From NCBI GenBank assembly GCA_963977445.1, contig CAXBPH010000036.1, positions 1 to 37,317 of the forward strand: a stretch of 37,317 bases of DNA, in the 5' to 3' direction. The translations under genes were made by a program, and so were the position numbers. Source of the stretch: an uncultured bacterium. Lineage in GTDB: Bacteria > Hydrogenedentota > Hydrogenedentia > Hydrogenedentales > JAEUWI01. Of the stretch, positions 1-29,971 are shown one piece after another. Position 1 is the stretch's first letter, and the number at the start of each line of letters is the position of its first letter. Below the pieces are notes generated by a model. That model saw only the letters and a program-made list of their open reading frames with translations. It was not told where the DNA came from and made no database searches.

Positions 1-60
1 CTTCACCCTCGCCTTCACCCTCGCCTTCACCCTCGCCTTCACCCTCGCCTTCACCCTCGC
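1..60 (-). repeat. 5 x 12-bp tandem repeat (CTTCACCCTCGC on +) encoding a Glu-Gly (EGEG) linker
   Basis: Five exact copies read directly, in frame with the giant ORF; probably continues beyond the edge. Confidence 0.95.
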
Positions 61-9000: not shown

Positions 9001-11572
9001 CGCCCCGGTTCACCGAAAACTCGCGGGAAATCGCGTCGGTAATCGGCAAGGGATCAGGTGAGCTTTCTGCCCGTACCTCGACGTTCACGAAAATTCCCGC
9101 TGAGCTGCCGTTTCCATCGCTCACTTGCACTTCAAAGGCATCTGTGCCCATAAAACCACTGTCCGGCAGGTAGTCAAACGCGTCTGGGGTCGGCCCCGTG
9201 CCACTGACAGTAGCCGAACCGTTGGAGGCGGCCGATGCAACGAACCAGACTAGTTCGTCCCCGTCCGCGTCGATTGCATCAAGCTCTGGCGCGGGAAAAG
9301 TTTTGCCTTGTTCCATCACGACGGAAATTGGGCTGCTTTGTGTAATCTCGGGCGCATCATTCTGGGCATTTACCGTCACCTGCACCGTGATCGAATCTGT
9401 GAGCAGGCTGGTATCTATCACTTGCACCGTGAAACTGTCCGAACCGTTCGCATTGGGATTGGGGGTATACGTGAACACACCCGGCGAATTTCCCGTGCCC
9501 GAAACCATCGCCGTGCCTTTGTTTGGACTGGTTCCAAGTGACCATGTGAGTTCCTCTCCATCCGGATCGGTCGCGAAAAGTTTTGGCGCGACGAACGCTA
9601 CAGGAAACGAATCTTCGTCTATTTCCGTTGAAATGGCCGCAAGATCGCTGGTTTCCTCGGTTTGAAACGATTGAATTCGGTGATTCCCCAGCTCGGACAC
9701 ATACACGTTTGTGTTCCGCGCCGCGATGCCCCAGGGCCCATCAAATTCTCCATCGCCTGTCCCGATAGTACCCCACGCTTCGACCAACGTACCCGCAGAC
9801 AGGAAACGCTGAATGCGGTGGTTGCCTGAATCGACCACAAACACCGACTCGCCGCTCGTGGCAATCCCATTTGGGCTATCAAACTGGCCCCCCCCACTTC
9901 CGTAACTCCCCCACATGGAAAGAAAGCTTCCGCCGGAATCAAAACGTTGTATGCGATGGTTGCCGGTGTCCGCCACATACACCACCCCGGAGCTGGTCGT
10001 TGCAATACCTACGGGTGAATTAAACTGTCCCGTGCCACTACCCGAACTGCCCCATGTCCCAACGAAGCTACCGTCTGAATCAAATAATTGTATACGGTCA
10101 TTGCCCGTATCGGCCACATATACCGTCCCGCTAGCGTCGACCGCAATGCCCGTTGGACTGTCGAATTCGCCGTGCCCGGCACCTTGCGAACCCCATGTAG
10201 AAATATATGCCCCGTCATTTCCGGTAAACTTCTGGATGCGATTGTTGCCAAAGTCGGTCACATATACCATGCCGGATCCATCAACCGCGACCCCATAAGG
10301 CGCGTCGAAAAGGCCGTTAGCCGTACCTTGCGCTCCCCACGTGAACAAATATTCCCCGTCCGCGTCAAACACTTGTATTCGATCATTTTCCGAATCCACA
10401 ACATATACGGAGTCGTCGCCGCTCACAGCAATGGCAGTCGGGGCATTAAATTCACTCGCACTACTTCCCGGATTCCCCCAAGTCTGCACATGCGTAACCT
10501 CGTGTTCCAAGGCCAAGATCACGGGCGCGCCTGATTCATCTGGTACGTTATCCAGGCCACTTTCCCAAAGACGGGCGGTGTTGTCGTACGATTCCGTCAG
10601 CACCGTGGTTCCGTCGGGGGAGAACGCCGCAGATAGAACTGCGCCGGTGTGTCCACTAAATACACGAATCACGTCGCCCGTGGTTATATTCAGCAGACGT
10701 GCAGTCTTGTCGAGCGATCCCGTCAGAAGCTGCGCGCCATCCGGTGAAAACACAGCGGAGAAAACTCTACTCGTGTGCCCGGTAGAAAAACTTCGAATTA
10801 GTCCCCCTGATTCCACGTCAAGAAGTGCTGCGGTACCGTCGACTAGCCCCCTAATCAGCTGTGTGCCGGCCGGCGAATAGGATATACTAAAAGTAGATCC
10901 ACCAATATCGCGTAGCAATTCACCTGTCGTTACGTTCCAAATGCTGGCAACACTGTCGCCAACGCCGACAACGTGCGTGCCATCCGGCGAAAACTTGGGG
11001 GATCTCCAGACCACGTTATTTTGGAACGTCAGAATATAATCCCCAGTTTCGGCATTCCACAGGCGGGCAGGCGCATCAGTCCCCGTGAATATTTTCGACC
11101 CGTCCGGCGAATAAGCGACGGTAAGTGCACCACCGGTATGCCCGGTTAATGTATGTACAACGGCCCCCGTCTCGACATTCCAAACCCGTACGGTTTCATC
11201 TCCCGATGCGGTTAGGATATGGAGGCCGTCTGGAGCGTAAGCCACAGACCGAACGCTGCCGGTATGTCCCGAAAAGGTGCGGACTAGATTCCCGGTTGAC
11301 GCGTCCCAAAGCTTTGCGGTATTTCCGGATCCTGTCGTGAGGATGTATCTGCCGTCGGGCGAAAACGTCGCTGTGTCGACAGGGCCGTCCGTCGTGAAAG
11401 TGAGTAACGACTCAGTGATTACTTCCTGAGCGCTGGTCTGAAATCCGACCAGAGCCGCCATTACCCAAGTAGCGATAGCCAAGTGCGCGCACAGCCATCG
11501 AATAGACGTGGATAGCCCCGAGGCGATGCGCACCCACGCTATGGCGGTATGTAGTTTTCCGTCGACGTTCAT
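1..11572 (-). CDS. Giant secreted multidomain surface protein (>3857 aa, 3' end beyond window): signal peptide, WD40 repeats (~11400-10560), NHL repeats (~10480-9660), Ig/cadherin-like domains, 21-aa repeats, CARDB domains, PA14-like domain, putative Ig domain, Asp-rich TSP3-like Ca-binding repeats (~1520-1100), beta-helix-like region, EG linker
   Basis: ATG at 11572 with GGAAAGG RBS. Manual translation starts MNVDGKLHT...WVMAALVGFQTSAQE then FSPDGRYILT...AKLWDASTG...GHTGSVRSVAYAPDG (WD40). The same frame reads sensibly at spot checks (~9000, ~4000) and gives EGEGEG at 1-60. It is absent from the ORF track, as expected if it has no stop inside the window. Not every codon was checked. Confidence 0.9.
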   Translation of the reverse strand, partial: MNVDGKLHTAIAWVRIASGLSTSIRWLCAHLAIATWVMAALVGFQTSAQEVITESLLTFTTDGPVDTATFSPDGRYILTTGSGNTAKLWDASTGNLVRTFSGHTGSVRSVAYAPDGLHILTASGDETVRVWNVETGAVVHTLTGHTGGALTVAYSPDGSKIFTGTDAPARLWNAETGDYILTFQNNVVWRSPKFSPDGTHVVGVGDSVASIWNVTTGELLRDIGGSTFSISYSPAGTQLIRGLVDGTAALLDVESGGLIRSFSTGHTSRVFSAVFSPDGAQLLTGSLDKTARLLNITTGDVIRVFSGHTGAVLSAAFSPDGTTVLTESYDNTARLWESGLDNVPDESGAPVILALEHEVTHVQTWGNPGSSASEFNAPTAIAVSGDDSVYVVDSENDRIQVFDADGEYLFTWGAQGTANGLFDAPYGVAVDGSGMVYVTDFGNNRIQKFTGNDGAYISTWGSQGAGHGEFDSPTGIAVDASGTVYVADTGNDRIQLFDSDGSFVGTWGSSGSGTGQFNSPVGIATTSSGVVYVADTGNHRIQRFDSGGSFLSMWGSYGSGGGQFDSPNGIATSGESVFVVDSGNHRIQRFLSAGTLVEAWGTIGTGDGEFDGPWGIAARNTNVYVSELGNHRIQSFQTEETSDLAAISTEIDEDSFPVAFVAPKLFATDPDGEELTWSLGTSPNKGTAMVSGTGNSPGVFTYTPNPNANGSDSFTVQVIDTSLLTDSITVQVTVNAQNDAPEITQSSPISVVMEQGKTFPAPELDAIDADGDELVWFVASAASNGSATVSGTGPTPDAFDYLPDSGFMGTDAFEVQVSDGNGSSAGIFVNVEVRAESSPDPLPITDAISREFSVNRGDPTAVIPSVDAISREFSVNRGDPTAVIPSVDAISREFSVNKGDPDSEIPYVDAVSREFSVYQPQPDLQVISLDAPERGGIGDTISIDWEVRNVGNGVAAATWMDCLYLSTDAVLGNDVALACRLGEAPLDVLTTYAGTAEVVLPALAPGTYWILLAIDAEYAVKEDDEQNNWMSFGPVEILPALTRSSDAVTTLVPSFSGDGIGLEIFLGIGGGVAPHPDNLEGREPDGSFFAPYLDFPNPGSTVTISSSFNEFFASTATAPDAVQELQPQQFILRSQGLLRITEDLDTDLDTPEIDLEIGVGSDDGYYLEVGNHFLGMTGDRGFSYSWHKMRFEGEGLYPLDLLFAANASGYSGLELAWRVAAGESLIAQDDLFQSAPGCDTLVQFDEFENGTVLTDELADKGLILTTISGQPQVTETRPGEFVPVSGTRVFADPRVDPVEEVVVELRFVEPGTANNGVADHFSCYVIDAEETGATATVYNSIGDVLEIRNFHLGGASQEFAEFDHPKMNRIVFNLGQGTDTAALDNLCFSTPISYAIADLVVESIQMEDSFPAGSEILVAWTVRNYGIESAPGPWSDRIYLSNDERLDENDHLLDVEAALEIPLASGASYDLSRLTEVPINYPPGDAYFLVEADGEKELLEGEERNNVTASLVHIQQPQLPNLRVTSIETTSEGPVDGEFIVAWDLINDGDAPATVAWNTRIYAVVEGSEERTLLSESVFDEGLAAGTSLPQTATTVIPALLDDRFAVEVCIDADDSVYEVTEQDNCATSDGVVTILRPDLTTSGIGAAASIGTGASVQVSWTVTNTGSATARPAWNDVVYLSDDATVGGDRALYSRQRTDVVPIGSAYERAESVTIPLDVAAGNYWLYVVADSENVLQEETEGNNTSGLRSIAITTTIPPQIAPMGNASATAGETYTSGAPTLVSGTQPLAWSLVSGPSGMVIDNSTGVIQWPNAVPVLDSYTIAIRAENVAGSDQTSFQLSVPSPYTATVSADVESAPAGTPVLLRGDAFLPGSGGSPAAHVPVEIRVVKQGVISTRRTLTAYSGSDGKFSAVFTPGAKEGGVFEVSAHHPGVTEERVDDTFRLYGMAFAPNQAQVHLKPGIIAEGELYLRNLSDAPVTEIAMTIDGPSSLNVKFVDPPTALSANDVSVFHYRVSVADDSDRNLSTLIRATAGDVVAEFRLEAEVQSAAPEVTFAPSALLRGLVRGAQTFAEFTVTNTGGASTGSLDVLLPSVQLAGGDPSLPPWIVLVTPKKLPPLAPSESISVSLAITPRPEMLLGEYKGAVRLTDHDTVVRDIDFEFRVVSGELGDLFVRVTDEHTYWSEEGQYRTDGPLVEGALLQLFDPTDEATVLYEQNAATAAKADNDLAPGTARFTDIPSGDYLLRAGAPGSQSTTELVHIEPGTTTEFDAFIPKETVTYTWDVRETTVNEINLVTLDVGFETHVPFPVVTVDPPLIDLSQIDQDVTVIDFEITNHGLINVDNVAMIFDDHPVWKIVPVVENLGTLTALTTVVVPVVITRVESGDSQNKGGGGGLCDLGARVTHTVFCGVDRNYAVPIPIHNIGYNCPGGQGGLGGCSFYGTCPTANTGPGAVFGPRPAVSGGLKCDPCDPENPLKFCRDFSGLLEGVVAPAQEALNTLGAGIVEFDVSASLEGCIEECCEPGGSGYQLVAQGDGEIEASVILGGKSFSLPQFSWTLPASTFGDYSGNASVKINSGSATLAGLKTTGNIGVSGRLESGCTGEPSFSAMVSGHYEARSGVWGEAGITATLLGQTIFNGQLALDGSAVLGLGASYSYANGKGSGEITSDGLCVNASLKGSLNGKEIVLGMPEKWCPIPGATIKLGGDKGGAYQRIDLDEYVLSGLPTSVSQYKMSPKTSQKSGEEEGACVFVRLQLEQEVALTRQAFTARIAMENPDGVTAVEMLLVSVDVVDEDGLSANDRFVIGFPELQGITATDGSGTLAPATSGSAEWLIMPLPEAAAEGPEVYYVSGIISFVHGDRTELAPLSSTPITVRPSPRLALDYFWERDVYGDDPFTEIVEPSLPFTVGLLVKNNGAGLASNLSVKSSQPRIIENKRGLVIDFALIGSQVNDEAATPALSVALGDLAPDASTVVQWFLTSSLQGRFVEYDASYAYKGPLGDSRLSSIESLGIHELAHTVRIDVPSDDGKPDFLANETFVFNDLPDLLYGSDGSLALVRSVESGVFASAMKADSKTFSLTAAMPAGWTYLRIEDPTGGDYRVSRVTRSDGKEIRVGENAWTTHRVYRPAGESAEPQHRFHLLDFDGTGSYTVTFDEIEGPDLEVSPASLLLGAQSIDGGPTPPQELTLTNSGTEPVLFRDPAFSFEGKGSEVFGFSAAVSREPLAPGATRILPVVFDPDKVGARLVKLLISSNDPLQPIIGVNVSGTGYVTSGAAPRIVTNGGVDFRIGISPFPIWGYAAADATSVRLGGTPVNFSQATSTWSLDATLLPGVNVFTFDSLIAGGATSPSATIQIYYDPSNDLDGDGLLDSEEGVADYDNDGLPNYEDGDSDNDQLSDRFEHTYGFDPYRDEGLADADPDQDQLSNRRESALGTDPGDPDSDGDGLPDGWEADACLLPTVADGHLDHDSDSHTNLREYEMGTNPCDPLDPPLALYVSPDGSDFFGSGTYEDPLGSIYFAMSRAKRIVSEAYPMTIVLLGGDFKENVVVANYVELVGSDGEISRILSPVSQGGNDATGSAVVTMEAETQLKNLSIVANGKAPGIRIAGDNVTILDCVVTGSNMSQTGLYVDLGLEGPVYLTSSVIESFLTAIETGGASIWISTTTFRDMDGDAIVVRPSGNTKSAGLGPILGSFEDLDVAGANRFRNVAGRFVRNESSISVDAPYNDWGSAFIGDIEANIIGGVAVEPFIAERVELPAVVVQLWDGRLSSDVLDASNPIVRIEASGQMGVRDSESKLFILNDVEIGNQRIVTTSDAHLENDVTVHVLDSGLVATRVLLSPVNSGEGEGEGEGEGEGEGEGEGE
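8820..9040 (-). repeat. Four intragenic 63-bp (21-aa) repeats, core DA[IV]SREFSV[NY]
   Basis: Translation: PITDAISREFSVNRGD-PTAVIPSVDAISREFSVNRGD-PTAVIPSVDAISREFSVNKGD-PDSEIPYVDAVSREFSVY. Confidence 0.9.
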
Positions 11573-11655
11573 CCCTGGACCTTTCCGTGATACGATTTCC
11601 CGCTGCAGCAATGCCTTGTCACGCGCCGCCGGTATCCAGGCGGCAACCCGCGCGA

Positions 11656-15624: not shown

Positions 15625-15650
15625 GAAAACTTCGGACGTCCGAAGTTTTC
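15625..15650. repeat. Palindrome copy 2, GAAAACTTCGGACGTCCGAAGTTTTC
   Basis: Perfect 26-bp palindrome. Confidence 0.95.
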
Positions 15651-16082
15651 TGATCGGAGTGGGGGAGATCCCCCGAGGCTTTTGTATGTCGGTGACAATC
15701 GGCGACCGCCTCCATAGTCATCGCTCGTCGGATTCAAGATACGTGTCAGCCGTTGTCTCTTGCACAATCTTCCGTATTGTTTGAGATTGGTTCCAGCAGG
15801 CGCAACCGCGATTTGCGAAGATCTTGGTCAGCCTCAAGTATTTGGGTTTGCGACGATCGATCCCAAAAGTTTTGCTGTCGTTGTGGGGCGCTGGCCAATA
15901 TCGTAACGCGAAGCTGTTTTCAACGTCGTTCGGTAGTCAATCGGTCACGGCACGAACCACGTTGACCGCCTGTGCATACGTCCTGGGAATTTACATGCAA
16001 TTGCTGTAGCGGAGCGGCAGAGCACTGCGGGTCCAGTGCCGCGGAGAGGCTAAAGTGGGGGATCAATACCGTCCTCTCGTCA

Positions 16083-18447: not shown

Positions 18448-19326
18448 TCACGTTAACGAGCGAGGACCGTCGCTTAAGTTTTCAAGGAACTCCCGAACGG
18501 TTCTTACAATTTCCGGCAGGTCTGGTGGCGCAGGTTGTCGTCGTTGGCGCTTGACAAACCCGGCCCATTGAAGGCGCTTCGACTCATTATTTGCGAACTC
18601 GTCCGTGAGGGCTAAAGGCGTTGACTCTGGAAGCGGTGTTTGCCGGCGGATAAAGGTGCTCCTGATCGCTTCACACAAGCTATTTTCATTCAAGGGGAAC
18701 GTCTGGCTCAACATCCAGATATCGAAGTAGTCCTTCATACGACTGTTGGCCATGCCGAGTAGAACCATGGCGTGGAATTTCTCCGCGATAACTGTTTCCG
18801 GTGAGTATGTAGCGATTATGGGGCCCCGTTCGGCCAACAGTGCTGGGAACTCTGCTTGCCTGGGCTCGGGGACAATGATGTCGCCAAAGCCCACATCCAC
18901 TTGAAGCCGGATTGGCATTACACCGAGATAGACCGGTACGACGACGCGCACGCCGTCATAGACCGAATCCTCCCGGATGGCGGAAGCAGCGACTTTTGTA
19001 CCATCAAATTCGAGACCATCGTCCTCCATCGTGACGGTACAAACGCTCCCAATCACTTCGGCAAGATGCTTCGGGTCGGGATTGCCGAAGCCCAAGAGAT
19101 CAAGGTCCATGGTTGTGCGTTTGTCATCGAGCCGCCATGCGACGTAGAGCATTGCCCCTTTCAGGACGAACTGATTTCGGTGTGGGCTCGTAGCCAGGCG
19201 GGCCAGGAATCGCTCCACCGCGTAGCGGAGAACAATAGCTTGAAAGTCCTCGCCCGTTGCCTTCGCCAGATTCAGGAGCCGTGCCCGAACCGAGGCGCTC
19301 ATGTTCTTACGTGAGGGATCTCTCAT
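18448..19326 (-). CDS. abiEii: AbiEii/AbiGii-family nucleotidyltransferase toxin (292 aa)
   Basis: True start MRDPSRKNMSASVRARLLN at the ATGA overlap with abiEi. Motifs FVLKGAML, RTTMDLDLLG, ETVIAEKFHAM, NSRMKDYFDI. Confidence 0.9.
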   Translation of the reverse strand: MRDPSRKNMSASVRARLLNLAKATGEDFQAIVLRYAVERFLARLATSPHRNQFVLKGAMLYVAWRLDDKRTTMDLDLLGFGNPDPKHLAEVIGSVCTVTMEDDGLEFDGTKVAASAIREDSVYDGVRVVVPVYLGVMPIRLQVDVGFGDIIVPEPRQAEFPALLAERGPIIATYSPETVIAEKFHAMVLLGMANSRMKDYFDIWMLSQTFPLNENSLCEAIRSTFIRRQTPLPESTPLALTDEFANNESKRLQWAGFVKRQRRQPAPPDLPEIVRTVREFLENLSDGPRSLT

Positions 19327-19928
19327 TCGACCAGCATTTCCAGGTAGGGTTGGATGATGCCCTGCACACGGCAGACGCTCGCCGCCGCCCAGAGTTCGTC
19401 CATGGTGAAACGTTTCGCGCGCCAGCCTTCGCGGAGCGCCTCGATGGCGACATCCAGGCCGATCTTGTTTCGATACTTGAAGCAGTCCGCAATCGTTCTG
19501 GCCGGGGTGTAGATGTGTACCGCCACGCCCTCGATCACGTGCTCCTCCATGCCATGCTCGAAATGGGGACCCGTGCAGTAGAGAAAACGAACACCCCCCT
19601 CGCTTGGTGGCATCTTTCGGTCTCGCCGCATCATCCAGGTTTCGTGGGGCATCTGCGTGCCGATGCCATGAAATACGAGCGCCGAGATGACACAAATCAC
19701 GCCGCCGGGATAGCGGCGGGTGGCCTCTACAAAAGTGTGGTTCACGCTCAGCTCTCCATCGGGCAGTCCATAGAGTCCCCGTCCGGGCTGGACAAGCTGT
19801 CCGCTCCGAACCATGCGCTGGAGCGTGGATCTCGGATCCCGCGCATCGCGGATGTCCCGCGCGCGAAAGACGGATTGACGCCGTGCGGTTCTCAGTATCT
19901 TGTCGGCAATGTGCTCCATAGAGGGCAT
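19323..19928 (-). CDS. abiEi: AbiEi-family type IV TA antitoxin / transcriptional regulator
   Basis: LQRMVRSGQLVQPGRGLY, ISALVFHGIGTQMP, YTPARTIADCFKYRNKIGLDVAIEALR. Start uncertain (19919, 19928 or 19937). Confidence 0.9.
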   Translation of the reverse strand: MPSMEHIADKILRTARRQSVFRARDIRDARDPRSTLQRMVRSGQLVQPGRGLYGLPDGELSVNHTFVEATRRYPGGVICVISALVFHGIGTQMPHETWMMRRDRKMPPSEGGVRFLYCTGPHFEHGMEEHVIEGVAVHIYTPARTIADCFKYRNKIGLDVAIEALREGWRAKRFTMDELWAAASVCRVQGIIQPYLEMLVE

Positions 19929-19961
19929 ACTCTCCAAAGAATAAAGTTATTACTATTCTCC

Positions 19962-19991
19962 AATATGAGCCAACTCGATGGGAAATGTCAA
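19962..19991 (-). promoter_or_regulatory. sigma70 promoter of the abiEi-abiEii operon
   Basis: Minus strand TTGACA-N18-CATATT. Confidence 0.55.
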
Positions 19992-20012
19992 GGCCGGGAT
20001 TTGCCATGACAG

Positions 20013-21469: not shown

Positions 21470-21495
21470 CGAACCCCGCAAAGGTCCCAGATCGA

Positions 21496-22365
21496 CCGGG
21501 CTTTTAGCCCGGCAGTGTCTATGGCGCGCGCGGACGGTGAAGAGATCACCGTCCGCCACGCGTGGTACACCCCACGCGACCCCTCCTCGGTGCGGGCCTT
21601 CGGCCCGGCCTTGTTGCCGCTCGCGTCTCGCGATTCCCGACCCTTGGTCAGGACATCGCTCGATCGCTCGCACAACCGATCACTTCAAGCCGCTGGCTTG
21701 GCGTGGTCTGTCAGTGCCCCGCAGCCCCGCCCCGAATAAGACCAAGGTCGCACGCTTCGCGTGCGTAGTCTATATGGCTCGCCAGCTCGCGATTCCCGAC
21801 CGTTGGCCAGGATATCGCTCGCCCGCTCTCCTCGCCTCCAGCCCCGGAACTCCGCGCGCGCCCCTCCCTCCGTTCCGGCACCTCCGGCATGTACCCCGCC
21901 GCTTCCACCACCATACCCGCCCAGTCCTCGCCCCACCGGCTGCGCGAACGCGCCGCCGCCTTTTCTTCGGACGCACGCTTTGCGTGCGCCTGGTCTATGG
22001 GTCGAACCCGGCTCGGATTTCCGCCTTGCGGAACTTCCTCATCCGGGTTCTCACCGAGCTCTCGGCATTCCCGACCCTTCGCCCTGGTCAGGACATGCTG
22101 TCGACTCGGCCCCGACCCCGAGGCCTCGCTTATTCCGCGCCCGGAAGTTGCTCAGCCTCTTTCACTGGCAGCCACGCCCTGGGAGCGAGGCGCGCGCCAG
22201 CGTCGCTGTCACGCCCCTCGCCCGTTCCCAGGCCGCCCCCATGCCGGGCTCCTGAACGGAGCCTCCGCGCTGAACGCGCGGTTGTCGCCTCGCGATTGGG
22301 CGCGAGGGCTCCCGGCCCTGAACGGGCCTGCGCTCGCTGGGCTGCTCGCGCCTGCGCTGAACGCT
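21496..22365 (-). other. Array of repeated hairpins (structured ssDNA or ncRNA) upstream of the relaxase-like gene
   Basis: Three units of hairpin + GTCTAT(AT)GG + conserved 36-39-nt hairpin, and three different stems sharing a TGAAC loop (see findings). Confidence 0.65.
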
Positions 22366-22534
22366 CCGGCCCCTTTCGCCCTACGTCTTCTTCGCGCTCA
22401 AACTGGCGGTCCACAGCACACTTAAGCGACCGCCCAGTCAGGGGTTAGACACAGCCCAACAACCATCTTCCAATCCCCTCTAAAGGTGGTGTACACTTGG
22501 GTCGAGGCTTGGGTGAGGGTCAGGCTGTGGGCTC

Positions 22535-23179
22535 ATGCTGACCATCTCTTCACGAGACGACGAAATCCTCGATTCACTGACCTTGCGTGTGCGCTTGCTC
22601 ACGCTGGACCAGGTCGCACGCTGCTGGTGGTCCGACGTAAAGTCGGCCAGGCAGTTGGCCCTTAACCGTCTGCGCGAACTCGAATTGGCGGACAAAGTCC
22701 ACCTCTTGGACTTGCCCGCTCACCCCGAACTCTCGCTCACGGAACCCGAGGCGATCTGGAAGCCGAAGGCCCCTGTCCCAAACTTTCACCAGCTCAGCTA
22801 CCGCCTTTCCAGCCGGTGGAAGCAGCCTCCAATCCTCCACCTGGGGGTCATCGCTTCCCGCGCTTCCGGGCGTCACTACGGTGGCTGGGGCGGGCGCAAA
22901 CCCCGCCCGACAGAGCGCACCCACGACCTCCATATGGGCACGGTGTTCCTTCTGAAGCGGGCCCGGGATCCGGAATCGGTAATTCACTGGATGTCCGAGG
23001 AGAAGGTCCGCGAGTGGCAGCGGCAGCGTCGGAGCGACGGCACCCATCACGTGCCCGATGCCATCGTGAAGCGGCCCAGACGAACCGCCATCGAGTTTGG
23101 GGGCTCCTATCCCGCAGACAAGCTGTCCACCTTCCATGACTACTGCGTGACGCAGGGGTGGCCTTACGAAATATGGTAG
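22535..23179 (+). CDS. Replication-relaxation (Replic_Relax / MOBC-like, PD-(D/E)xK fold) putative relaxase
   Basis: N-terminal wHTH (RDDEILDSL..VRLLTLDQVAR..ALNRLREL), then THDL, VPDAIV, AIEFGGSY..KL; first gene of an operon with a coupling ATPase. Confidence 0.7.
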   Translation: MLTISSRDDEILDSLTLRVRLLTLDQVARCWWSDVKSARQLALNRLRELELADKVHLLDLPAHPELSLTEPEAIWKPKAPVPNFHQLSYRLSSRWKQPPILHLGVIASRASGRHYGGWGGRKPRPTERTHDLHMGTVFLLKRARDPESVIHWMSEEKVREWQRQRRSDGTHHVPDAIVKRPRRTAIEFGGSYPADKLSTFHDYCVTQGWPYEIW

Positions 23180-23877
23180 AGCGGGACGATACAATCGATC
23201 TGAGGGCCCTGATCCTCGAACATATTGGGCGCTATCGCATCTCCTTCCTACCCGTGATGGAGCGTGTCTTCGCTGGGCTCGGCGACGTGAAGGGAACGGT
23301 CCAGAAACTCCAGAAAGCTGGTCTAATCACCGCCCTGGGACGGACGGCGGGCTACGGAAGCATCTTCGGCGGCTACACCGCATACCAGACCACGGCGAAG
23401 GGCGCCAAGCAGGCCGGCTTCACGGTGAAACGCGCAAAGAAGCTCGAAGAGAACGCACTGGAGATTTCCTTTCGGATCCTCTGGCTCTGCTGCATGGGTA
23501 AGCCACGCTACCGTCGTCTGGAGGAAAGGCACCTCGTGCAATTGTTCGGCCATCCCCTCAAGTCGAAAAATGGCTACTACTGCATGGAGATGAAAGGAGA
23601 ACGCCGGGTCTACCGCATCCGCCTGATCGGTCAGGAATCGGACGACGAATACGCGCTCCGTGAAACCCGAAAGGATCTCGTCGAATGCGGCGAGTTACCC
23701 ATACTGAAGGAATTCTGTCAGCACGCTCGCTACGGAAACCTGCTGGTGGTCAGCAAGCCGGAGCGGCGGCGGCGGCTCGAAGAACGGGTGAACAAGCAGG
23801 GTCTGAAGCAATTAGGACACGTTCGGGTGGCGCAGGTACCCGACCTCGCCGAGATAGGAGGAGCCTTCCGTGATTGA
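23173..23877 (+). CDS. wHTH hypothetical protein, possible relaxosome accessory factor (234 aa)
   Basis: ATG overlaps the upstream stop and the 3' end overlaps the next gene; ILEHIGRYR...VQKLQKAGLI...YQTTAKG wHTH pattern. Confidence 0.75.
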   Translation: MVERDDTIDLRALILEHIGRYRISFLPVMERVFAGLGDVKGTVQKLQKAGLITALGRTAGYGSIFGGYTAYQTTAKGAKQAGFTVKRAKKLEENALEISFRILWLCCMGKPRYRRLEERHLVQLFGHPLKSKNGYYCMEMKGERRVYRIRLIGQESDDEYALRETRKDLVECGELPILKEFCQHARYGNLLVVSKPERRRRLEERVNKQGLKQLGHVRVAQVPDLAEIGGAFRD

Positions 23878-26845
23878 TGATCTTTTTAACGTTGGTTCCT
23901 ATGCCGCCAAGGCGTTGCGGCGCAGCGTCCTTCGGTATACCCGTCGGCCCGTCGAGTATAATTTTAAACGCCTTCCCGAGCCCGAACACTACCGCGACAT
24001 GGAACTTGCCTTTCGCGAAGACTACTTCGATCCGCCGCCCTTTTCCTTCAAGCACATGTTCCCCTACTTTAAATACGCGTCCCTTTTGCTGCTTTTTTTG
24101 ATGGGGTACAACGCCTTCGGCCTGAGTATTGTCCTTGCAATATCTAGTCTCGTGGTTCTGGCGCTGCCAAATATTTTTATTGGGCGCAGCTTCATGCTCT
24201 TGTTCCGCTCTCAAGTCCAATTATCGCTTGCCATTTTCTTTGTTATCCTGGTCGGCCTGGCCTACATCGCCACCGATTCCATGGAATATAGCGCGCTGGC
24301 GGTATTCGCAGTTGGCGCCCCGATGCTCTTTGTCCTGAAACGCGTCACCTACGATTTCATGGCCTTTTGCGTCCTGTGGCTTCACACGCACCCTTGCCTA
24401 ACGAACAAGGAACGCCAGGATAGTCGTGAAACACTGTATCCGGCGTTCAGCCTACTTTTGCCTGAGATTGTCGTCGTCGTCCTCGCACTGGGCCCAGCAT
24501 ACTCGTCTTTCCTGGCGCTAACCGCTGTGTACGCGATCCTCCTCGCCAGCTTGATCTTTGGGCCACTGCAGAAAATTTTTCGCGAGCAAACACAGATAAC
24601 GTGGTACAGGTTCGCCAGCACGACGACCGAGCTTCTTGTAGAGTATTTTACCTACGGCAGAAGGTTCTCTCGCCCCTTGCCCGGTGTCTTCGTTTACCCA
24701 CGAGGATATCACGTGCGGCGCCGGTACGCTGTCCTGCTGCTCATCCTGACGCTATTCACCTTTTCCGCCGGTACCAGCTTCTTCTTTGCATGGGACACGC
24801 CAGGTTTTCGTGGCCAGTATGTCGCCATGTTCAGTGAGACCATCTATGCGGATCCGAATGCGTGGAACGGGATGAAAGAAGAAATGCCCCTTCTCGACTG
24901 GTCCAAGGCACCAGATCAAGGTGAACGCGAAAGGATGCAGCAGCGTCTGGATAATCTGCGCGAGGCGCGCGATGACGCAACATCAGACGACAGAATCGCG
25001 ATTGGCATCGAAGTGGAGAAGTTGAGCAGACAAGTGCCTGCCGGTGGGCCCGAACTCGACCATATCGCCAATGCTTGGTACGGGCGCGCCACCACGGCGT
25101 GGATGAAGATGGCCTTGCGCAATGTGCGAACACACCCTGTTACCGTTTCTGCAAGCTTTCTCTTGGCCATCGCTCATGCCCTCCTGCTTCCCGCGCTCTT
25201 CTTCCTTGCCACCCTGCAACATCAATTACTCGCGATTGGGTTACTACGAGAAAAGCTTGTAGCCCGCGTCGCCACGGAAACTACGTGCAGCCCATGGGAG
25301 TGGTTCGTGGAGCGACTCAGGAATTCGCGCCACGCGGCACCCGACCCGCTCAACGCCGATTCCGCCATCCGCGAAGCAGATCACCTCTTTCTTGGTCTGG
25401 AGGCCGAAAACGGATTTCCCGTTCTGTTACATCGTGATATCGTCGCGGACCACGTCTACATAACCGGGGGTACCGGCACGGGCAAAACTTCGCTCGGCAT
25501 TCTCTCGCTGTTGGTCCAACTGATCCGCGCCGGCTCGACGGACCCCGACGAATCCGAAGGCGGCACGCCGCCCATCGTCATTATTGATCTCAAGGGTGAC
25601 TACGCCCTGCTGCACACAGTGCGCGAGGAGGTGCGAAAGAAAGCAGAACAGGAAGGACGGAATTTCGAGGACTGCTTCCGCCTCTTCACCTCCGAGAAGG
25701 GTATGCCCACCCACTACTTCAACCCGCTCGGGGACATGAGCCACCCGGATCGTTACGTGGCGGATCTCGCCAATCTGCTGCTGGATGCGCTGGAACTCAA
25801 CCACGGCCCGGGCTATGGCCGCTCGTTTTACAGCCGCAAGAATTACATGCTCCTGCACGAAGTCCTGAAGGCCAATGACCCGGCGACTATCGATGAGTTA
25901 TGCAAGCGCATCTCCAAGAATACCCTACGCAACAAAGATGATCGGCATCAGGCATTTGAACTCGTGGCCACCCTTTACGGGCTCACGGAGTTCACGCAAC
26001 TCATGCCGCCCCCTAACATCCCCGAATCCGATACCATTTCCATGCGCACGGTGATCGAGGAACGGCAGGTCGTATACTTCTGGCTTCCCACGGTGGAAAG
26101 CAGCATCGTTGCGCGTGAGATCGCCAATCTTGCCCTTTTCTCGTACTTCTCGGCCATGCGGGCCCGGGCGAAGACGCGTGTGCCGCTGCGCCAGGCCTAT
26201 CTGGTCGTGGATGAGTTTCAGAAACTTGCCGGCGACCGTTTTAGCGTCATCCTGGAGCAGGCTCGAGGATTCGGGCTTTCGGCGATCCTGTCAAACCAGT
26301 CTATCTCTGACCTGAAAACCCCCTCTTTCGACTTGCGTTCCACCGTGTTTCAGAACACGCGCCTCAAGCTCTATTTTTCCTTTGCCGACTGCCGCGAAAT
26401 GGCCGATTTCGCCAAACGTTCCGGCGATGAGTTGGCCTATATGCGTTCCGGCATTTATAACCTTGCCGGGGACGAGCAACCCGACGCGCCACTATTTGAC
26501 CGGTGGTCGCACGCCATCAAGCCTCGCGTTACCACCAACGATATGCTCAGCGTTACGGATCACCCACTCCAGGCCTACATGGACGTCCGTTCCGGCAGCG
26601 GCTACACCCAGTTTGGCGGCGCTACGATTCCATTGCAGATGTTTCATCCGGTTCGATGGTCGGACTTTCAGGAGCGACGCGATACCTTGTCCTGGCCTAC
26701 GTTGGAAGAGTTGGGGATCACAAGATCGGTATGCGCCGCCGTATCGCCAGAGGAGGTGGATGAACGGGCCGTTGCGCAGATCGCGCGGCTCGACGAGCGC
26801 ATCCAGGCGTTTGATGACGAGCATCCGCAGTTTCGTTTTTCATAA
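23870..26845 (+). CDS. Polytopic membrane VirD4/TraD-like type IV coupling ATPase (991 aa)
   Basis: AGGAG RBS and GTG start; roughly 8-9 hydrophobic segments; Walker A GGTGTGKT, IIDLKGD, Walker B LVVDEFQ, EQARGFGLSAILSNQSISDL. Confidence 0.88.
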   Translation: MIDDLFNVGSYAAKALRRSVLRYTRRPVEYNFKRLPEPEHYRDMELAFREDYFDPPPFSFKHMFPYFKYASLLLLFLMGYNAFGLSIVLAISSLVVLALPNIFIGRSFMLLFRSQVQLSLAIFFVILVGLAYIATDSMEYSALAVFAVGAPMLFVLKRVTYDFMAFCVLWLHTHPCLTNKERQDSRETLYPAFSLLLPEIVVVVLALGPAYSSFLALTAVYAILLASLIFGPLQKIFREQTQITWYRFASTTTELLVEYFTYGRRFSRPLPGVFVYPRGYHVRRRYAVLLLILTLFTFSAGTSFFFAWDTPGFRGQYVAMFSETIYADPNAWNGMKEEMPLLDWSKAPDQGERERMQQRLDNLREARDDATSDDRIAIGIEVEKLSRQVPAGGPELDHIANAWYGRATTAWMKMALRNVRTHPVTVSASFLLAIAHALLLPALFFLATLQHQLLAIGLLREKLVARVATETTCSPWEWFVERLRNSRHAAPDPLNADSAIREADHLFLGLEAENGFPVLLHRDIVADHVYITGGTGTGKTSLGILSLLVQLIRAGSTDPDESEGGTPPIVIIDLKGDYALLHTVREEVRKKAEQEGRNFEDCFRLFTSEKGMPTHYFNPLGDMSHPDRYVADLANLLLDALELNHGPGYGRSFYSRKNYMLLHEVLKANDPATIDELCKRISKNTLRNKDDRHQAFELVATLYGLTEFTQLMPPPNIPESDTISMRTVIEERQVVYFWLPTVESSIVAREIANLALFSYFSAMRARAKTRVPLRQAYLVVDEFQKLAGDRFSVILEQARGFGLSAILSNQSISDLKTPSFDLRSTVFQNTRLKLYFSFADCREMADFAKRSGDELAYMRSGIYNLAGDEQPDAPLFDRWSHAIKPRVTTNDMLSVTDHPLQAYMDVRSGSGYTQFGGATIPLQMFHPVRWSDFQERRDTLSWPTLEELGITRSVCAAVSPEEVDERAVAQIARLDERIQAFDDEHPQFRFS

Positions 26846-26928
26846 CAAAGCCCGATGGCGGGCTTAGGGTACGGTGCGGCATACCGCTGCACGTGCAATG
26901 TATCTAAAACACATGCAAGGAGCGATTC

Positions 26929-28068
26929 ATGAAACATAGTGTATTCATTCTGGCGGGAGTGTTGCTCCCCGGACTCGCCGGCTTGGTGGCGGGCTGTTCC
27001 CAGGGCACCGGTGCCAACGGCACAAGCGACTTGGATAAAATCACGAGTGCCCGCGAGTCGAACCAATTACAGGAAGACCTCGCCCTTGCGACGAGCAGGT
27101 ATAGCGAACTTCTAGAAAAGGGAAGCCGCACCCAGACGGCGCTTGACGAGTTACGCCGGTTGCATACCCAATGGAATACCGAGGTTATGGCGTTACTTCA
27201 AAGTGAGGACGGACGTTTCTTGGCCGCTGACGAAGCCGACGTCAAGGCCTTCCGCGCTCATGTCGAATCCATGAACCCCGTCTCGGAAGACACCATCGGC
27301 AACCTCTCAACTTCACTCAATACCCTGATCGCTCCCGTTAAAACTGCGATGACGGAAGGTTCAGTAGCTGGTATGCCTAATCCCGAACTTGTCACCCGGT
27401 TAGCCGACCTCGACGTGAGAATACAAGATTCGCTGTTACCCTACGAAAGCGCCGTTTCCGCGATACAGGCCCTGGCGGCCACGGCCAAGAGCCGTGGTAC
27501 GCGTGGTATGCAAACATTGCAGCAAGAGGTTGACGTTCTCAAAAGTGCCGAGGCTGCGGCACGCGCCGCAAAGATAGAGTCCGCACGCCTGGAGGCCGAA
27601 GAGGAAGTGACGCAGCAGCTTGCTAAGGCTGAGCAGGACTTGGTCCGGGTACAAGGGGAAAAAAAGCGACAGGAGTTGGAATCCCAGGCTCATGAACTCC
27701 GTGCGCAAGCAGAGGCCGACGCCATCAAGGCCCGGGCCACCAATTCGGATACCATCAAACGCCTCGCGCCTTTCGTGAAGAAGACCAAGGTCATTTTTGA
27801 ATGTTACAGCCCGAGCAATTGCCGATGGATACCGGGACAGACGCTGGCGGCACCGCTATCTTTCGGAGCCCTTACACGGCTTGGTGCCTTGGAACCAACG
27901 CAGCTTGGATTTGAACAGCTCCAATCGGTCGCGACATCCTATGAAAATGACCGTCCAAAGTGGGGCTCTGCCGACACCCCGGAAGATTGGGAACGGGTCA
28001 AGGACAATCAGAAACTGCTTCGAGAGCTAGGACCCACACTCGTGGAACTGGGCCATCTGGCACCTTGA
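26929..28068 (+). CDS. Coiled-coil lipoprotein, hypothetical (379 aa)
   Basis: AAGGAG RBS; signal peptide ending LVAG-C (lipobox); long A/E/Q/K-rich helical stretches. Confidence 0.85.
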   Translation: MKHSVFILAGVLLPGLAGLVAGCSQGTGANGTSDLDKITSARESNQLQEDLALATSRYSELLEKGSRTQTALDELRRLHTQWNTEVMALLQSEDGRFLAADEADVKAFRAHVESMNPVSEDTIGNLSTSLNTLIAPVKTAMTEGSVAGMPNPELVTRLADLDVRIQDSLLPYESAVSAIQALAATAKSRGTRGMQTLQQEVDVLKSAEAAARAAKIESARLEAEEEVTQQLAKAEQDLVRVQGEKKRQELESQAHELRAQAEADAIKARATNSDTIKRLAPFVKKTKVIFECYSPSNCRWIPGQTLAAPLSFGALTRLGALEPTQLGFEQLQSVATSYENDRPKWGSADTPEDWERVKDNQKLLRELGPTLVELGHLAP

Positions 28069-28401
28069 CCAGGTGCACGGGCCGCCTACCGAGGCTCCTG
28101 CGTCGCCTCCGAAAGCGTCAGCGCTCATAACCCGGCTTCCGATGGGCCTGCGGCCCAACCGAATCCCACGAAGACCCTCGGACTCGGAACCGATCCGGTA
28201 GCATGAGGGCGTGCGCACCCACCGTCCCTGGACGCCGTGCGTCGGGCCCGTGCCGGGGTGAGACCCGACGACGACGTCCGAAGACGGTAGGAACGGGTCC
28301 TCGATGTCTGTGAGCACAGATCAGCCGTGAATCGTTTACGGCACAAGGGGCAATCACCGCAGGAACGCAGTCTCCATCAATCGGGTTCACCGCTGTGAGA
28401 T

Positions 28402-28419: not shown

Positions 28420-28653
28420 TTCCTGTGTCCAATCGAAAATTCGGATCAGCGTGCATAGCCTACACTCTGCCCCCTCTTCCCCATGTTGAATAAATGTCAC
28501 GCCTACGGATGACTTCCGCATAACGTTTCCAAATAGATGCTCTTTGATAACCCAACACGAGTAGACGGGAAACCCCCGTCTCCCAATCACTATGGGAGAC
28601 CGGTGGTGCAATCACGGTTTTTCATTGGGTTTTTCAACAACAAGGAGACAGCT

Positions 28654-29679
28654 ATGCAAACGTTAACACGGGCTCATGACGAGCTCTACCGGCGTACGCC
28701 AGACGAACAGTTCCCCAACTTGGACGCATTGGTGCAGCATTGTCAGACGCAAAAGGAAGCGTCGCAAGAGCAGTGGCACGCACCCCATACCATTCGTCCG
28801 GAATCGACGGGCGGAGAACTTACTCTTCGCCTGGATCAGGAAGGCGTATACGGCCTGAATGATTGGAGTTTCACCCAGGTATGCGGACTGGCCAAGGTCA
28901 GCAAGGATACGGTGAACAAACTTCGGCCCCAAACGGCCGATGCCGTGCTCGCGGAGACCCTCCCGAGCGGCACGCGGCCCATCCAGACGCTGATTCAGGG
29001 CGATCAGGTTCGTTCTATTCATGGTGCCAGCTATACGCGACTCTACAACGCGGATCTGCTCGGCGTCGTGAACGAATTCGCCTCCCATTTCAGCGCGCCT
29101 CAGGAGGCTGTTGGCGGTGCCAGTGGGCTCTATTGCGGGGAGCAGGACATGTTTTGCTTCCTCATCGACCCCACGGGCTGGGCGGAAATCGACGGTGAGG
29201 CCTTCGCCCCCGGATTCTTCTTGTGGAATTCGGAGGTGGGCAAACGCTCTATCGGTATCCAGACCTTTTGGTTTCAGGCCATCTGCCGGAATCACATCGT
29301 TTGGGATGCGGTCGAAGTCGTTGAATTCACCCGCAATCATACGGCACGGGTTTACGAATCTCTCGATGGCATACGGCGGATCATAGAGAATTTGGTCTAC
29401 AAGGTCGACGCCCGGCGGGATGGATTCATCCACGTCATTGAGAAGGCTATGCGGAAACGCTTGGGTTCTGATGCCGAGGAGGTGCTTAAGGCCCTACACA
29501 AGCACGGTATCCCCCGCAACCTGGCCCAGGAGGCCATGAAAATGGCCAAGGCCCAAGGAGAGTTTACCCTCTTCGCCCTCATTGATGCCCTTACCCGGAT
29601 GGCTGGAAAAATTCCAAACGCCGGGGACCGCATCGAACTGGACACCAAGGCGGCAGGCCTTTTGGCCCTCGCTGCGTAA
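28654..29679 (+). CDS. DUF932-like phage/plasmid protein (341 aa)
   Basis: ATG at 28654 with AAGGAG RBS; RSIHGASYTRLYNADL, GFFLWNSEVGKRS, FQAICRNHIVW, FTRNH. Confidence 0.78.
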   Translation: MQTLTRAHDELYRRTPDEQFPNLDALVQHCQTQKEASQEQWHAPHTIRPESTGGELTLRLDQEGVYGLNDWSFTQVCGLAKVSKDTVNKLRPQTADAVLAETLPSGTRPIQTLIQGDQVRSIHGASYTRLYNADLLGVVNEFASHFSAPQEAVGGASGLYCGEQDMFCFLIDPTGWAEIDGEAFAPGFFLWNSEVGKRSIGIQTFWFQAICRNHIVWDAVEVVEFTRNHTARVYESLDGIRRIIENLVYKVDARRDGFIHVIEKAMRKRLGSDAEEVLKALHKHGIPRNLAQEAMKMAKAQGEFTLFALIDALTRMAGKIPNAGDRIELDTKAAGLLALAA

Positions 29680-29704
29680 CCAAAACCAAGGAAAGGAGGC
29701 CATC

Positions 29705-29971
29705 ATGGCCGACAATAAGAAAGCCACGGCGAACAAACCCGTGGAAGAGCTCCGTCTGGGGGCCATCAAGGCTGCTATCTGGCAGAACGAAGCGAAGAAC
29801 GGGCACCGTTACAATGTCCGGATCACCCGCCTCTACAAGGATGGCGACGAGTGGAAAACGTCGGATTCCTTCGGGCGCGACGAACTGCCCATGGTCGCCA
29901 AGATCGCGGACATGGCCCATACCTGGATCTTCGGAGCCAGCCAGCGCACGGAGGAGAACGACGACGAATAG
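29705..29971 (+). CDS. Small putative ssDNA-binding protein, paralogue of 16651..16887 (88 aa)
   Basis: AAGGAGG RBS; IKAAIWQN...TRLYKDGDEWKTSDSFGRDELP; acidic tail EENDDE. Confidence 0.88.
   Translation: MADNKKATANKPVEELRLGAIKAAIWQNEAKNGHRYNVRITRLYKDGDEWKTSDSFGRDELPMVAKIADMAHTWIFGASQRTEENDDE

Follow-up and report, generated by a model that had tools for sequence, protein, structure and literature searches.

In the accepted view conjugation requires a channel that contains VirB4, and mobilizable elements make use of a borrowed one; no covalent intermediate is known for MOBC-type enzymes. These relaxases are placed in the PD-(D/E)XK superfamily in an account of TraX of pAD1, a protein described there as carrying an N-terminal winged helix-turn-helix (wHTH) domain and binding five direct repeats 70-120 bp from the nic site (PMC12857230). 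CloDF13 is described as one of the rare MOBC1 mobilizable plasmids that encode their own type IV coupling protein (T4CP) (PMC7431656), and the class 8 integrative and mobilizable elements (IMEs) of streptococci are reported to pair MobC with VirD4 (PMC5357655). DNA donation free of a type IV secretion system (T4SS) is reported for the integrated element ICEth1 of Thermus, in which TdtA, a membrane-associated ATPase of the FtsK/HerA superfamily, shares an operon with nucleases (PMC5365140). Here, we analyse a four-gene locus from an uncultured bacterium of the phylum Hydrogenedentota, read in a 37,317-nucleotide window that is the entire contig C36 of its genome assembly (7.1 Mb in 464 contigs, 94% complete).

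On balance we favour reading the four genes, together with the non-coding stretch upstream of them, as the part of an integrated MOBC-type mobilizable element that processes its DNA and couples it to transfer, which would be borne by a helper. The module would be a variant of the CloDF13 and IME class 8 design, and what is new in it is a pair of paralogues, an ATPase with eight predicted helices, an exported partner protein and the hosts in which it occurs.

Organization and recurrence of the locus

The four genes are co-oriented in the open reading frame (ORF) list of the window:

22535-23179, plus strand: ORF1 (214 aa, ATG start), a wHTH followed by a C-terminal domain, with H130, W152, E155, P174-D175, E187 and Y192 invariant
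23173-23877 (23158-23877 from a GTG), plus strand: ORF2 (234 aa from the ATG at 23173, 239 aa from the GTG), read from hhalign and the wHTH of its AlphaFold2 (AF2) model as a Replic_Relax-like paralogue without the PD and E.D residues
23870-26845, plus strand: ATPase (991 aa, GTG start), about eight predicted membrane helices and then a T4CP-like nucleotide-binding domain, with Walker A at 533-540 and DE at 781-782
26929-28068, plus strand: exported partner protein (379 aa, ATG start), a lipoprotein in the window with the lipobox VAGC, from a conserved family encoded after the ATPase gene

The shorter form of ORF2 has the length of its database homologues. ORF1 and ORF2 overlap by 22 nt (7 nt if the ATG is used) and ORF2 and the ATPase gene by 8 nt, while the partner gene begins 83 nt after the ATPase stop. 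A first-pass annotation of this DNA, made from its letters alone, had described three overlapping genes and a fourth just downstream, and the ORF list agrees with it throughout. The module is single-copy in the host genome, and no tRNA gene or Rfam family was found in the window.

Scanning a genome collection with the ORF1 alignment yielded 26 loci in other genomes (numbered from L001), mostly of Planctomycetota and also of Competibacteraceae, Acidobacteriaceae, Myxococcota, Eiseniibacteriota, Sphingomonadaceae, Rubricoccaceae and others. The nearest lies in a Hydrogenedentales metagenome-assembled genome (MAG) and has an ORF1 of 88% identity. By tblastn the ATPase is present in 21 of the 26 loci, ORF2 in 15 and the partner in 11, and by blastp clustering these counts are 23, 23 and 10; several of the loci are contigs of 1.5-3 kb, too short for the whole gene set. 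Because ORF1 loci in other genomes so often encode the remaining genes, the arrangement is not due to chance, and the grouping first proposed from a single contig holds up as a set that recurs in several phyla. The usual order is ORF1-ORF2-ATPase-partner; the Competibacteraceae loci differ, with ORF2-ATPase-partner pointing towards ORF1 in a convergent arrangement.

Other arrangements were also observed. At L002:779-6386 and at G237:C2:721880-726441 the ATPase gene is flanked by two ORF1(-ORF2) pairs with no partner gene after it, a variant with four Replic_Relax-like genes. Two Planctomycetota loci (L018:3595-9113 and L019:3461-9111) have the ATPase gene upstream of ORF1-ORF2, behind GrpE-like, Hsp70-like and VWA genes; this ATPase has 5 predicted helices, and a pattern search did not find a canonical Walker A in it. 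L025:9953-15467 is a decayed copy about 50 kb from the less fragmented copy L023 on the same contig, with the ATPase in at least five ORF fragments, the partner in two and a stop codon within ORF1; the ATPase of L023 is also in three pieces.

A pair of Replic_Relax-like proteins

Judged from profile comparisons, the ORF1 family appears to be a divergent branch of Replic_Relax/MOBC. The ORF1 profile gathered 1343 clusters at E<=0.001, 465 of them at E<=1e-30, from 1.84 billion representatives. Among the best 149 relatives, 54 match the Pfam Replic_Relax model (PF13814) at E<=0.01 and 13 score over its 25.3-bit cut-off (35.6 bits at best), along profile positions 2-47 and 76-155. Replic_Relax is weakly matched by 2 of 20 close ORF1 homologues (best E 0.014), and none of the 19 homologues from a word-based search has a Pfam domain. 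Against an alignment of nine genuine Replic_Relax proteins drawn from Bacillota genomes (14 of 201 genomes matched, 12 over the cut-off), hhalign aligned the ORF1 profile with a probability of 94.5% and E 7.8e-8, over the N-terminal 69 columns only.

Residues H130, E155, P174-D175 and E187 of ORF1 are invariant among 16-20 sequences, and its H, PD and E are colinear with the invariant H94, P147-D148 and E165 of the nine genuine members. ORF1 differs from these in that it does not reach the Pfam model and has a glycine (IEFGG) where they have an invariant D, two positions beyond the E. In the AF2 model of ORF1 (predicted local distance difference test, pLDDT, 93) the N-terminus is a wHTH, which VIA-align superimposes on MarR (3bpx_A; Z 8.8, root-mean-square deviation 2.1, 75 residues, model range 1-116), and the C-terminal elements follow an alpha-beta-beta-beta-alpha-beta order, fitting the fold class assigned to Replic_Relax in PMC3424549. 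A similar plan, an N-terminal wHTH with a putative restriction-endonuclease-like domain, links ORF1 with PF13814 and with pAD1 TraX, the prototype MOBC relaxase, and the direct repeats near the gene recall those of the TraX binding site (PMC12857230). Whereas Replic_Relax has been described mainly from Bacillus/Clostridium and Actinobacteria (PMC3424549), the hosts of the ORF1 branch are Hydrogenedentales, Planctomycetota, Competibacteraceae, Acidobacteriota, Myxococcota and others. We regard ORF1 as a putative nicking enzyme.

The ORF2 profile aligned with the genuine Replic_Relax proteins at a probability of 96.1% (E 2.8e-9) over 196 columns, the C-terminal domain included. Where the two align, ORF2 does not conserve the PD and E.D residues, the C-terminal half has no invariant column in the family, and 4 of 30 family members match Pfam Replic_Relax, weakly (best 0.011). 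The AF2 model (pLDDT 91.8) has an N-terminal wHTH (Z 8.5), and ORF1 and ORF2 are alike at the N-terminus only (E 5.7e-4). ORF2 had been annotated simply as a wHTH protein, which is right for that domain but falls short of a protein whose Replic_Relax match runs so far beyond it. ORF2 probably has a Replic_Relax-like fold without catalytic function and is a putative DNA-binding partner; we read the two proteins as a catalytic and a non-catalytic Replic_Relax paralogue, and because their adjacency is fixed we infer that they act together. A fold search with ORF2 gave weak rows to NucS/EndoMS, Can2, MUS81 and EcoO109I, which are leads only.

A conserved non-coding region upstream of ORF1

Three further features lie directly upstream of the genes:

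21470-22534, plus strand: conserved non-coding region upstream of ORF1, a candidate origin-of-transfer (oriT)-like cis-acting site that holds repeats and hairpins
21627-21669, 21786-21828 and 22061-22096, plus strand: three copies of a direct repeat, 80-93% alike and spaced 159 and 275 nt
22247-22328, plus strand: three hairpins (starts 22247, 22265 and 22314) with a shared TGAAC loop and differing GC stems of 5-6 bp

No credible ORF was found in 21470-22534, which has only overlapping Arg/Pro-rich frames. From 21491 to 22360 the DNA is 86% identical to two same-genus genomes, against 66-84% for the DNA of ORF1/ORF2, and all three copies of the roughly 40-nt direct repeat are conserved in the genus alignment. 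The hairpins sit in a 118-nt block (22243-22360) that is 94-95% identical in relatives and occurs in one genome (G327) as three tandem copies with a 171-nt period. The 7.1-Mb genome has 62 such hairpins (stems of at least 4 bp), and nowhere else in it do three or more of them cluster within 300 nt. L004/L006 and L013/L015 likewise have strong hairpins in clusters, at 250-500 nt upstream of ORF1, and three assemblies break at the upstream region.

At the gathering score no Rfam family was found in the upstream region, with only RT-15 at E 0.9, and the folding energy of 22200-22400 is no better than that of shuffles (z -0.93). At least 120 metagenome stretches match the 16-nt core of the repeat; we compared 80 of these loci, none was alike beyond the 16-mer, and the matches were therefore set aside as chance hits. 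Because TraX binds direct repeats near its nic site, the upstream region can reasonably be taken as a candidate oriT-like site.

A coupling-type ATPase with a large membrane domain

The ATPase matches the Pfam models TrwB_AAD_bind (33.3 bits, cut-off 20.5) and TraG-D_C (22.1, cut-off 22), and DUF87 (HerA) lies just over its cut-off. Across 13 homologues, TrwB_AAD_bind is matched by 11, TraG-D_C by 10, DUF87 by 5 and T4SS-DNA_transf by 3. Residues G533, K539, T540, D781 and E782 are invariant. Among solved structures the coupling protein IcmO/DotL comes closest (4.3e-5) and DptH next (0.011), and the top plasmid matches carry the annotation TraD.

Hydrophobic stretches at 70-105 (probably two helices), 116-134, 138-156, 189-207, 215-233, 288-306 and 431-449 give about eight helices by hydropathy, as in L001, L002, L003, L009, L010 and L013; residues 307-430 form a hydrophilic loop of 124 residues. 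With the Lys/Arg-rich N-terminus and the 234-287 loop (10 K+R against 3 D+E) taken as inside, the 307-430 loop would face the periplasm and the ATPase domain the cytoplasm. By comparison, the membrane part of TrwB and TraJ is described as two helices in about 70 residues and that of MobB as three in about 150 (PMC7431656). The first-pass description of a T4CP-like ATPase with an unusually large membrane domain is thus borne out by the T4CP domains, the helix count and the long loop. The ATPase homologues of L014, L016 and L026 (11279-14029; 891-916 aa) have no predicted membrane helix before a Walker A at residue 366 and are nonetheless followed by a membrane-anchored partner homologue.

An exported partner protein

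The protein encoded after the ATPase begins MKHSVFILAGVLLPGLAGLVAGC, with the lipobox VAGC at residues 20-23. Together with 12 database homologues and the homologues from the loci it makes up a family in which motifs are kept along the whole length (DGR.IA, NDRP.W and a C-terminal LVE.G.L.P). The N-termini vary: some members have a lipobox and others a single hydrophobic anchor, and those of Competibacteraceae bear what looks like a cleavable signal peptide. As judged from these predicted N-termini, the family is exported and conserved and its lipidation is not, so that the earlier label of lipoprotein fits the window protein and some of its relatives but not the family. No Pfam, NCBIfam or PHROG family was found for the protein, PADLOC gave one weak match (PDC-S06, 0.0025), and the ESM Atlas returned no usable match for it or for the ATPase membrane domain.

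The partner is not present in L002, L004/L006, L009 and L018/L019, and in L013/L015 and L011 different membrane-anchored proteins occupy its position. Its presence tends to go with the length of the last predicted periplasmic loop of the ATPase, which measures 103-152 aa alongside a partner in the window, L001, L003, L005, L010 and L013/L015, and 50-54 aa in L004/L006 and L009, all without one. The link rests on few independent lineages, and it fails in L002, where a long loop occurs with no partner, in L022, where a partner goes with a short loop, and in L014/L016/L026, whose ATPases have no predicted membrane helix.

Genomic context

The module lies in an accessory island of about 17 kb (about 13.0-30.1 kb of the window), whose limits are drawn from what same-genus genomes share and which also carries an orphan Dam-type methylase, AbiEii and a hydrolase. 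Module DNA is present in 4 of 8 other same-genus genomes, 3 of which were matched by the ORF1 profile; this profile matches 7 of 135 genomes of the host phylum, the host included, and 7 of 301 in a Planctomycetota sample. In a Rubripirellula MAG the module segment is present in two 12.2-kb copies that are 99.2% identical (L004/L006), and the duplicated segment also carries ArdC and a methylase. In both copies a gene shortly after that of the ATPase encodes an 89-aa protein (cluster c25; L004:14794-15063 and L006:14794-15063) with no Pfam match at 1e-5.

A Pfam scan of 146 representative neighbour proteins, with cluster counts by blastp, found an ArdC cluster in 9 loci, a DNA methylase in 5, ParA in 5 and tyrosine integrases in at least 4, together with ParB, HTH_17 (excisionase-like), AbiEii, HipA, DprA and transposases. 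These neighbours, the patchy presence of the module among related genomes and its duplication speak for a mobile element. No match to the family was found in phage or viral-contig collections.

How the locus compares with described systems

In the module, as in CloDF13, a nuclease of Replic_Relax/MOBC type is encoded beside a T4CP anchored in the membrane, and the element has no mating-pair genes of its own; the CloDF13 T4CP is likewise described as having a larger-than-usual membrane domain (PMC7431656). It differs in being chromosomal rather than on a small plasmid, in having two Replic_Relax paralogues instead of one and an extra exported partner, and in an ATPase with about eight helices and a 124-aa periplasmic loop where MobB is described with three helices in about 150 aa. 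The ATPase profile aligned with the longest ORF of the MobB region of NC_002119 at E 3.3e-4 and a probability of 38%. CloDF13 MobC was not located in this record, which is poorly annotated and whose frames look broken, and two candidate ORFs gave nothing against the ORF1 profile.

With IME class 8, the module shares the plan of a compact integrated mobilizable element with a MOBC relaxase and a VirD4-family coupling protein (PMC5357655). The class 8 elements have a serine integrase, whereas the related loci that have a recombinase encode a tyrosine integrase and none was found in the window; unlike them, the module has diderm hosts and the extra ORF2 and exported partner. ICEth1 resembles the module as an integrated element whose operon combines nucleases with a membrane-associated ATPase. 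Compared by description only, TdtA is HerA-like and accompanied by NurA and a type IIG restriction enzyme (PMC5365140), in contrast to the T4CP-like ATPase and Replic_Relax-like nuclease of the module.

Weighing the readings

Several results weigh against reading the locus as a MOBC module that borrows a channel. ORF1 itself has no Pfam, NCBIfam, PHROG or PADLOC match and no Replic_Relax match at E<=0.1, an outcome that the first-pass annotation had counted as refuting. Its C-terminal profile alone aligned weakly with Replic_Relax (E 0.029, probability 1.7%), an alignment in which H130, W152 and P174-D175 fall on the family's invariant H, W and PD. Fold searches with the ORF1 and ORF2 models returned only wHTH regulators, which crowded out the C-terminal domains (VIA-align peaks Z 9.2 and 8.5); Foldseek found nothing in the PDB at E<=0.001 for either model, nor did a PDB sequence search with the ORF1 profile. 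The first-pass call of a MOBC-like relaxase therefore stands on the family's links to PF13814 and on the N-terminal profile match, and not on a Replic_Relax match by the protein itself or on its fold search.

The ATPase falls far under the NCBIfam T4CP cut-offs (SXT_TraD 56 against 366 bits, CD1115 30.5 against 250, TOL TraD 26.6 against 647), and PADLOC defence models match it about as well as T4CP models do (mad8 1e-15 over residues 506-850, DndH 8.5e-9). Given these scores on one side and the T4CP domains and IcmO/DotL on the other, we place it as an outlying member of the coupling-protein branch. At the level of the element, no integrase was found among the ORFs scanned in the island and no flanking direct repeat of at least 11 nt at its borders, and 72,556 plasmid records hold no match to the family. 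To these are added the VirB4 counts given below.

The mad8 and DndH matches raise the prospect of a defence system, in which a membrane ATPase of the FtsK/HerA type would sense or expel invading DNA and ORF1 would be the PD-(D/E)xK effector nuclease. The match to DptH in the PDB, the DUF87/HerA score and the presence of AbiEii and the orphan Dam-type methylase in the same island point the same way. Against it, PADLOC has no match for ORF1 or ORF2 and one weak match for the partner, no other MADS or Dnd component was found among 16 window-region proteins scanned, and T4CP-specific domains occur in 10-11 of the 13 ATPase homologues. The recurrent neighbours are the anti-restriction gene ArdC, ParA/ParB and integrases rather than defence genes, and the conserved structured non-coding region next to ORF1 is in keeping with a cis-acting site that belongs to the element itself. 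The first-pass annotation had kept a nuclease plus HerA/FtsK defence role in view; its support is at the level of domains, in the mad8 and DndH matches to the ATPase alone, and we consider the role very improbable.

The repeats upstream of ORF1 bear on another reading, that of a replication or maintenance module of an excised element, with the Replic_Relax pair as initiator on iteron-like repeats and the ATPase acting in segregation. Pfam Replic_Relax is said to span plasmid replication and relaxation proteins (PMC3424549), there are three direct repeats of about 40 nt, and ParA and ParB genes are frequent neighbours. A membrane ATPase of T4CP type and an exported partner, however, have no evident replication role, the operon is translationally coupled, and the plasmid records lack the family; we hold this reading to be very improbable. 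Both the defence and the replication readings have little support.

The mating channel

As the first-pass annotation had noted, the window holds no mating-pair genes: no VirB4, VirB6, VirB8-11 or pilin family was found among its scanned ORFs. Nor does the picture change around the homologues, which had to be considered as possible parts of full T4SS loci; VirB4, VirB6 and VirB8-11 were absent within 10 kb of them among the 146 neighbour representatives, with one extra VirD4 (L011). A search of the host genome for VirB4, likewise suggested by the first reading of the locus, found none with PF03135, and this family was also absent from all 135 genomes of the host phylum in the collection and all 301 of the Planctomycetota sample. 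It is present in 1 of 24 module-bearing genomes. With TIGR00929, the model of full-length VirB4, one of 30 module-bearing genomes has a strong match (451 bits, in a Sphingomonadaceae MAG) and two more have partial ones (85 and 74 bits); the remaining matches are short and partial at 19-24 bits, two of them lying on the ATPase of the module itself. Neither TrbI nor PF02534 was found in the host genome. These counts rest on incomplete MAGs in which plasmids are often unbinned, and PF03135, which as a control matches only where a T-type system exists, can miss divergent VirB4. AAA_10 was tried as a second VirB4 marker and discarded because its matches, nearly all in the first ~70 of 362 model positions, are consistent with a P-loop only.

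The scarcity of VirB4 is the starting point for an alternative in which the module donates DNA by itself: ORF1 and ORF2 would process the DNA, the 8-helix ATPase would be the inner-membrane conduit, the partner would bridge the periplasm, and the recipient would take up the DNA itself, comparable to the push-pull transjugation of Thermus ICEth1. The ORF1 family and VirB4 differ sharply in the two phyla that hold most copies (7 of 135 and 7 of 301 genomes for the one, none for the other), and a preprint counts a single MPF_T (mating-pair formation, type T) plasmid in 83 complete genomes of Planctomycetota and reports that conjugation inside the phylum is not known (10.1101/2024.01.22.576637). 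The membrane domain is far larger than the two or three helices described for TrwB, TraJ and MobB, many loci encode, after the ATPase, a member of the exported partner family, which tends to accompany a long last loop of the ATPase, and TdtA of ICEth1 provides a T4SS-free precedent with nucleases in the same operon. Yet no candidate outer-membrane channel is conserved with the module in the loci examined, the partner is missing from the loci listed above, and its link to the loop has the exceptions already given. MAG incompleteness, poor plasmid binning and divergent VirB4 may account for some of the missing channels, and mobilizable elements commonly outnumber their helpers. We therefore think self-contained donation unlikely, and the same doubt attaches to its fullest form, a complete VirB4-independent donation machine of diderm bacteria whose Replic_Relax pair, one catalytic and one not, would nick at the hairpin array and whose ATPase, with its eight helices and periplasmic loop as the inner-membrane conduit, would pump out the strand together with the exported partner.

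Under helper-dependent mobilization, which we continue to favour, ORF2, perhaps with ORF1, would bind the upstream direct repeats, and ORF1 would nick one strand nearby, possibly at the TGAAC-loop hairpins. An ATPase hexamer would then take the nucleoprotein at the inner membrane and pump the strand outward, with the exported partner contacting its periplasmic loop. Passage through the outer layers would use the mating channel of another element, in the way that CloDF13 MobC with its own MobB uses a helper T4SS. Dependence on a helper channel is the default assumption and yet the weakest link of this scheme, because the VirB4 searches found almost none.

Other features of the window

Two more genes of the island lie downstream of the module:

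28537-29679, plus strand: DUF932-like protein (phrog_1362 at 1.3e-15; DUF932 0.025, under its cut-off)
29702-29971, plus strand: 89-aa protein with no protein family and no solved relative in a PDB sequence search

The 89-aa protein accompanies the module in 9 of the 26 loci by tblastn, at 35-63% identity. The DUF932-like gene was found in 0 of the 26 by tblastn, so it is not conserved with the module in other phyla, and it has paralogues elsewhere in the host genome. Between the partner and DUF932-like genes, a non-coding stretch of about 220 nt (28076-28293) is 83-87% identical to many same-genus places, of which G329:C579 has three and G324:C277 two; in G329:C240 it immediately precedes a DUF932-like gene, which is also its position here. 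It may serve DUF932 cassettes as a promoter or leader, or encode a small RNA of theirs.

Elsewhere in the island, a 519-aa ORF on the minus strand (18448-20007) has an AbiEii toxin domain at residues 266-501; because the domain is confined to these residues, translation probably starts at an internal site. The scanned window ORFs include no identified antitoxin of the AbiEi type. A palindrome of about 40 nt at 15625-15667 aligns with its own opposite strand, has copies of 88-100% identity in several same-genus genomes and looks like a repetitive extragenic palindrome (REP)-like repeat. Outside the island, an open-ended ORF of at least 3870 aa on the minus strand (2-11611) has WD40, NHL, cadherin-like and Big_9 domains, as read from its first 1204 residues (window 8000-11611).

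Implications

The ORF1 family is large, with 1343 representative clusters, and is mostly missed by Pfam thresholds, while the module recurs in phyla whose sampled genomes have no detected channel genes and whose members have no reported conjugation between them. If the module hitchhikes, mobility screens built on standard relaxase models would overlook a whole class of elements; if it does not, it would represent a second route of cell-to-cell DNA export in diderm bacteria. Were the less probable, self-contained reading true, phyla such as Planctomycetota and Hydrogenedentota, with no VirB4 match in 436 sampled genomes, could have a conjugation-like form of transfer. In both cases the Replic_Relax pair with its hairpin array offers a concrete system in which to study how MOBC enzymes may choose and process their sites.

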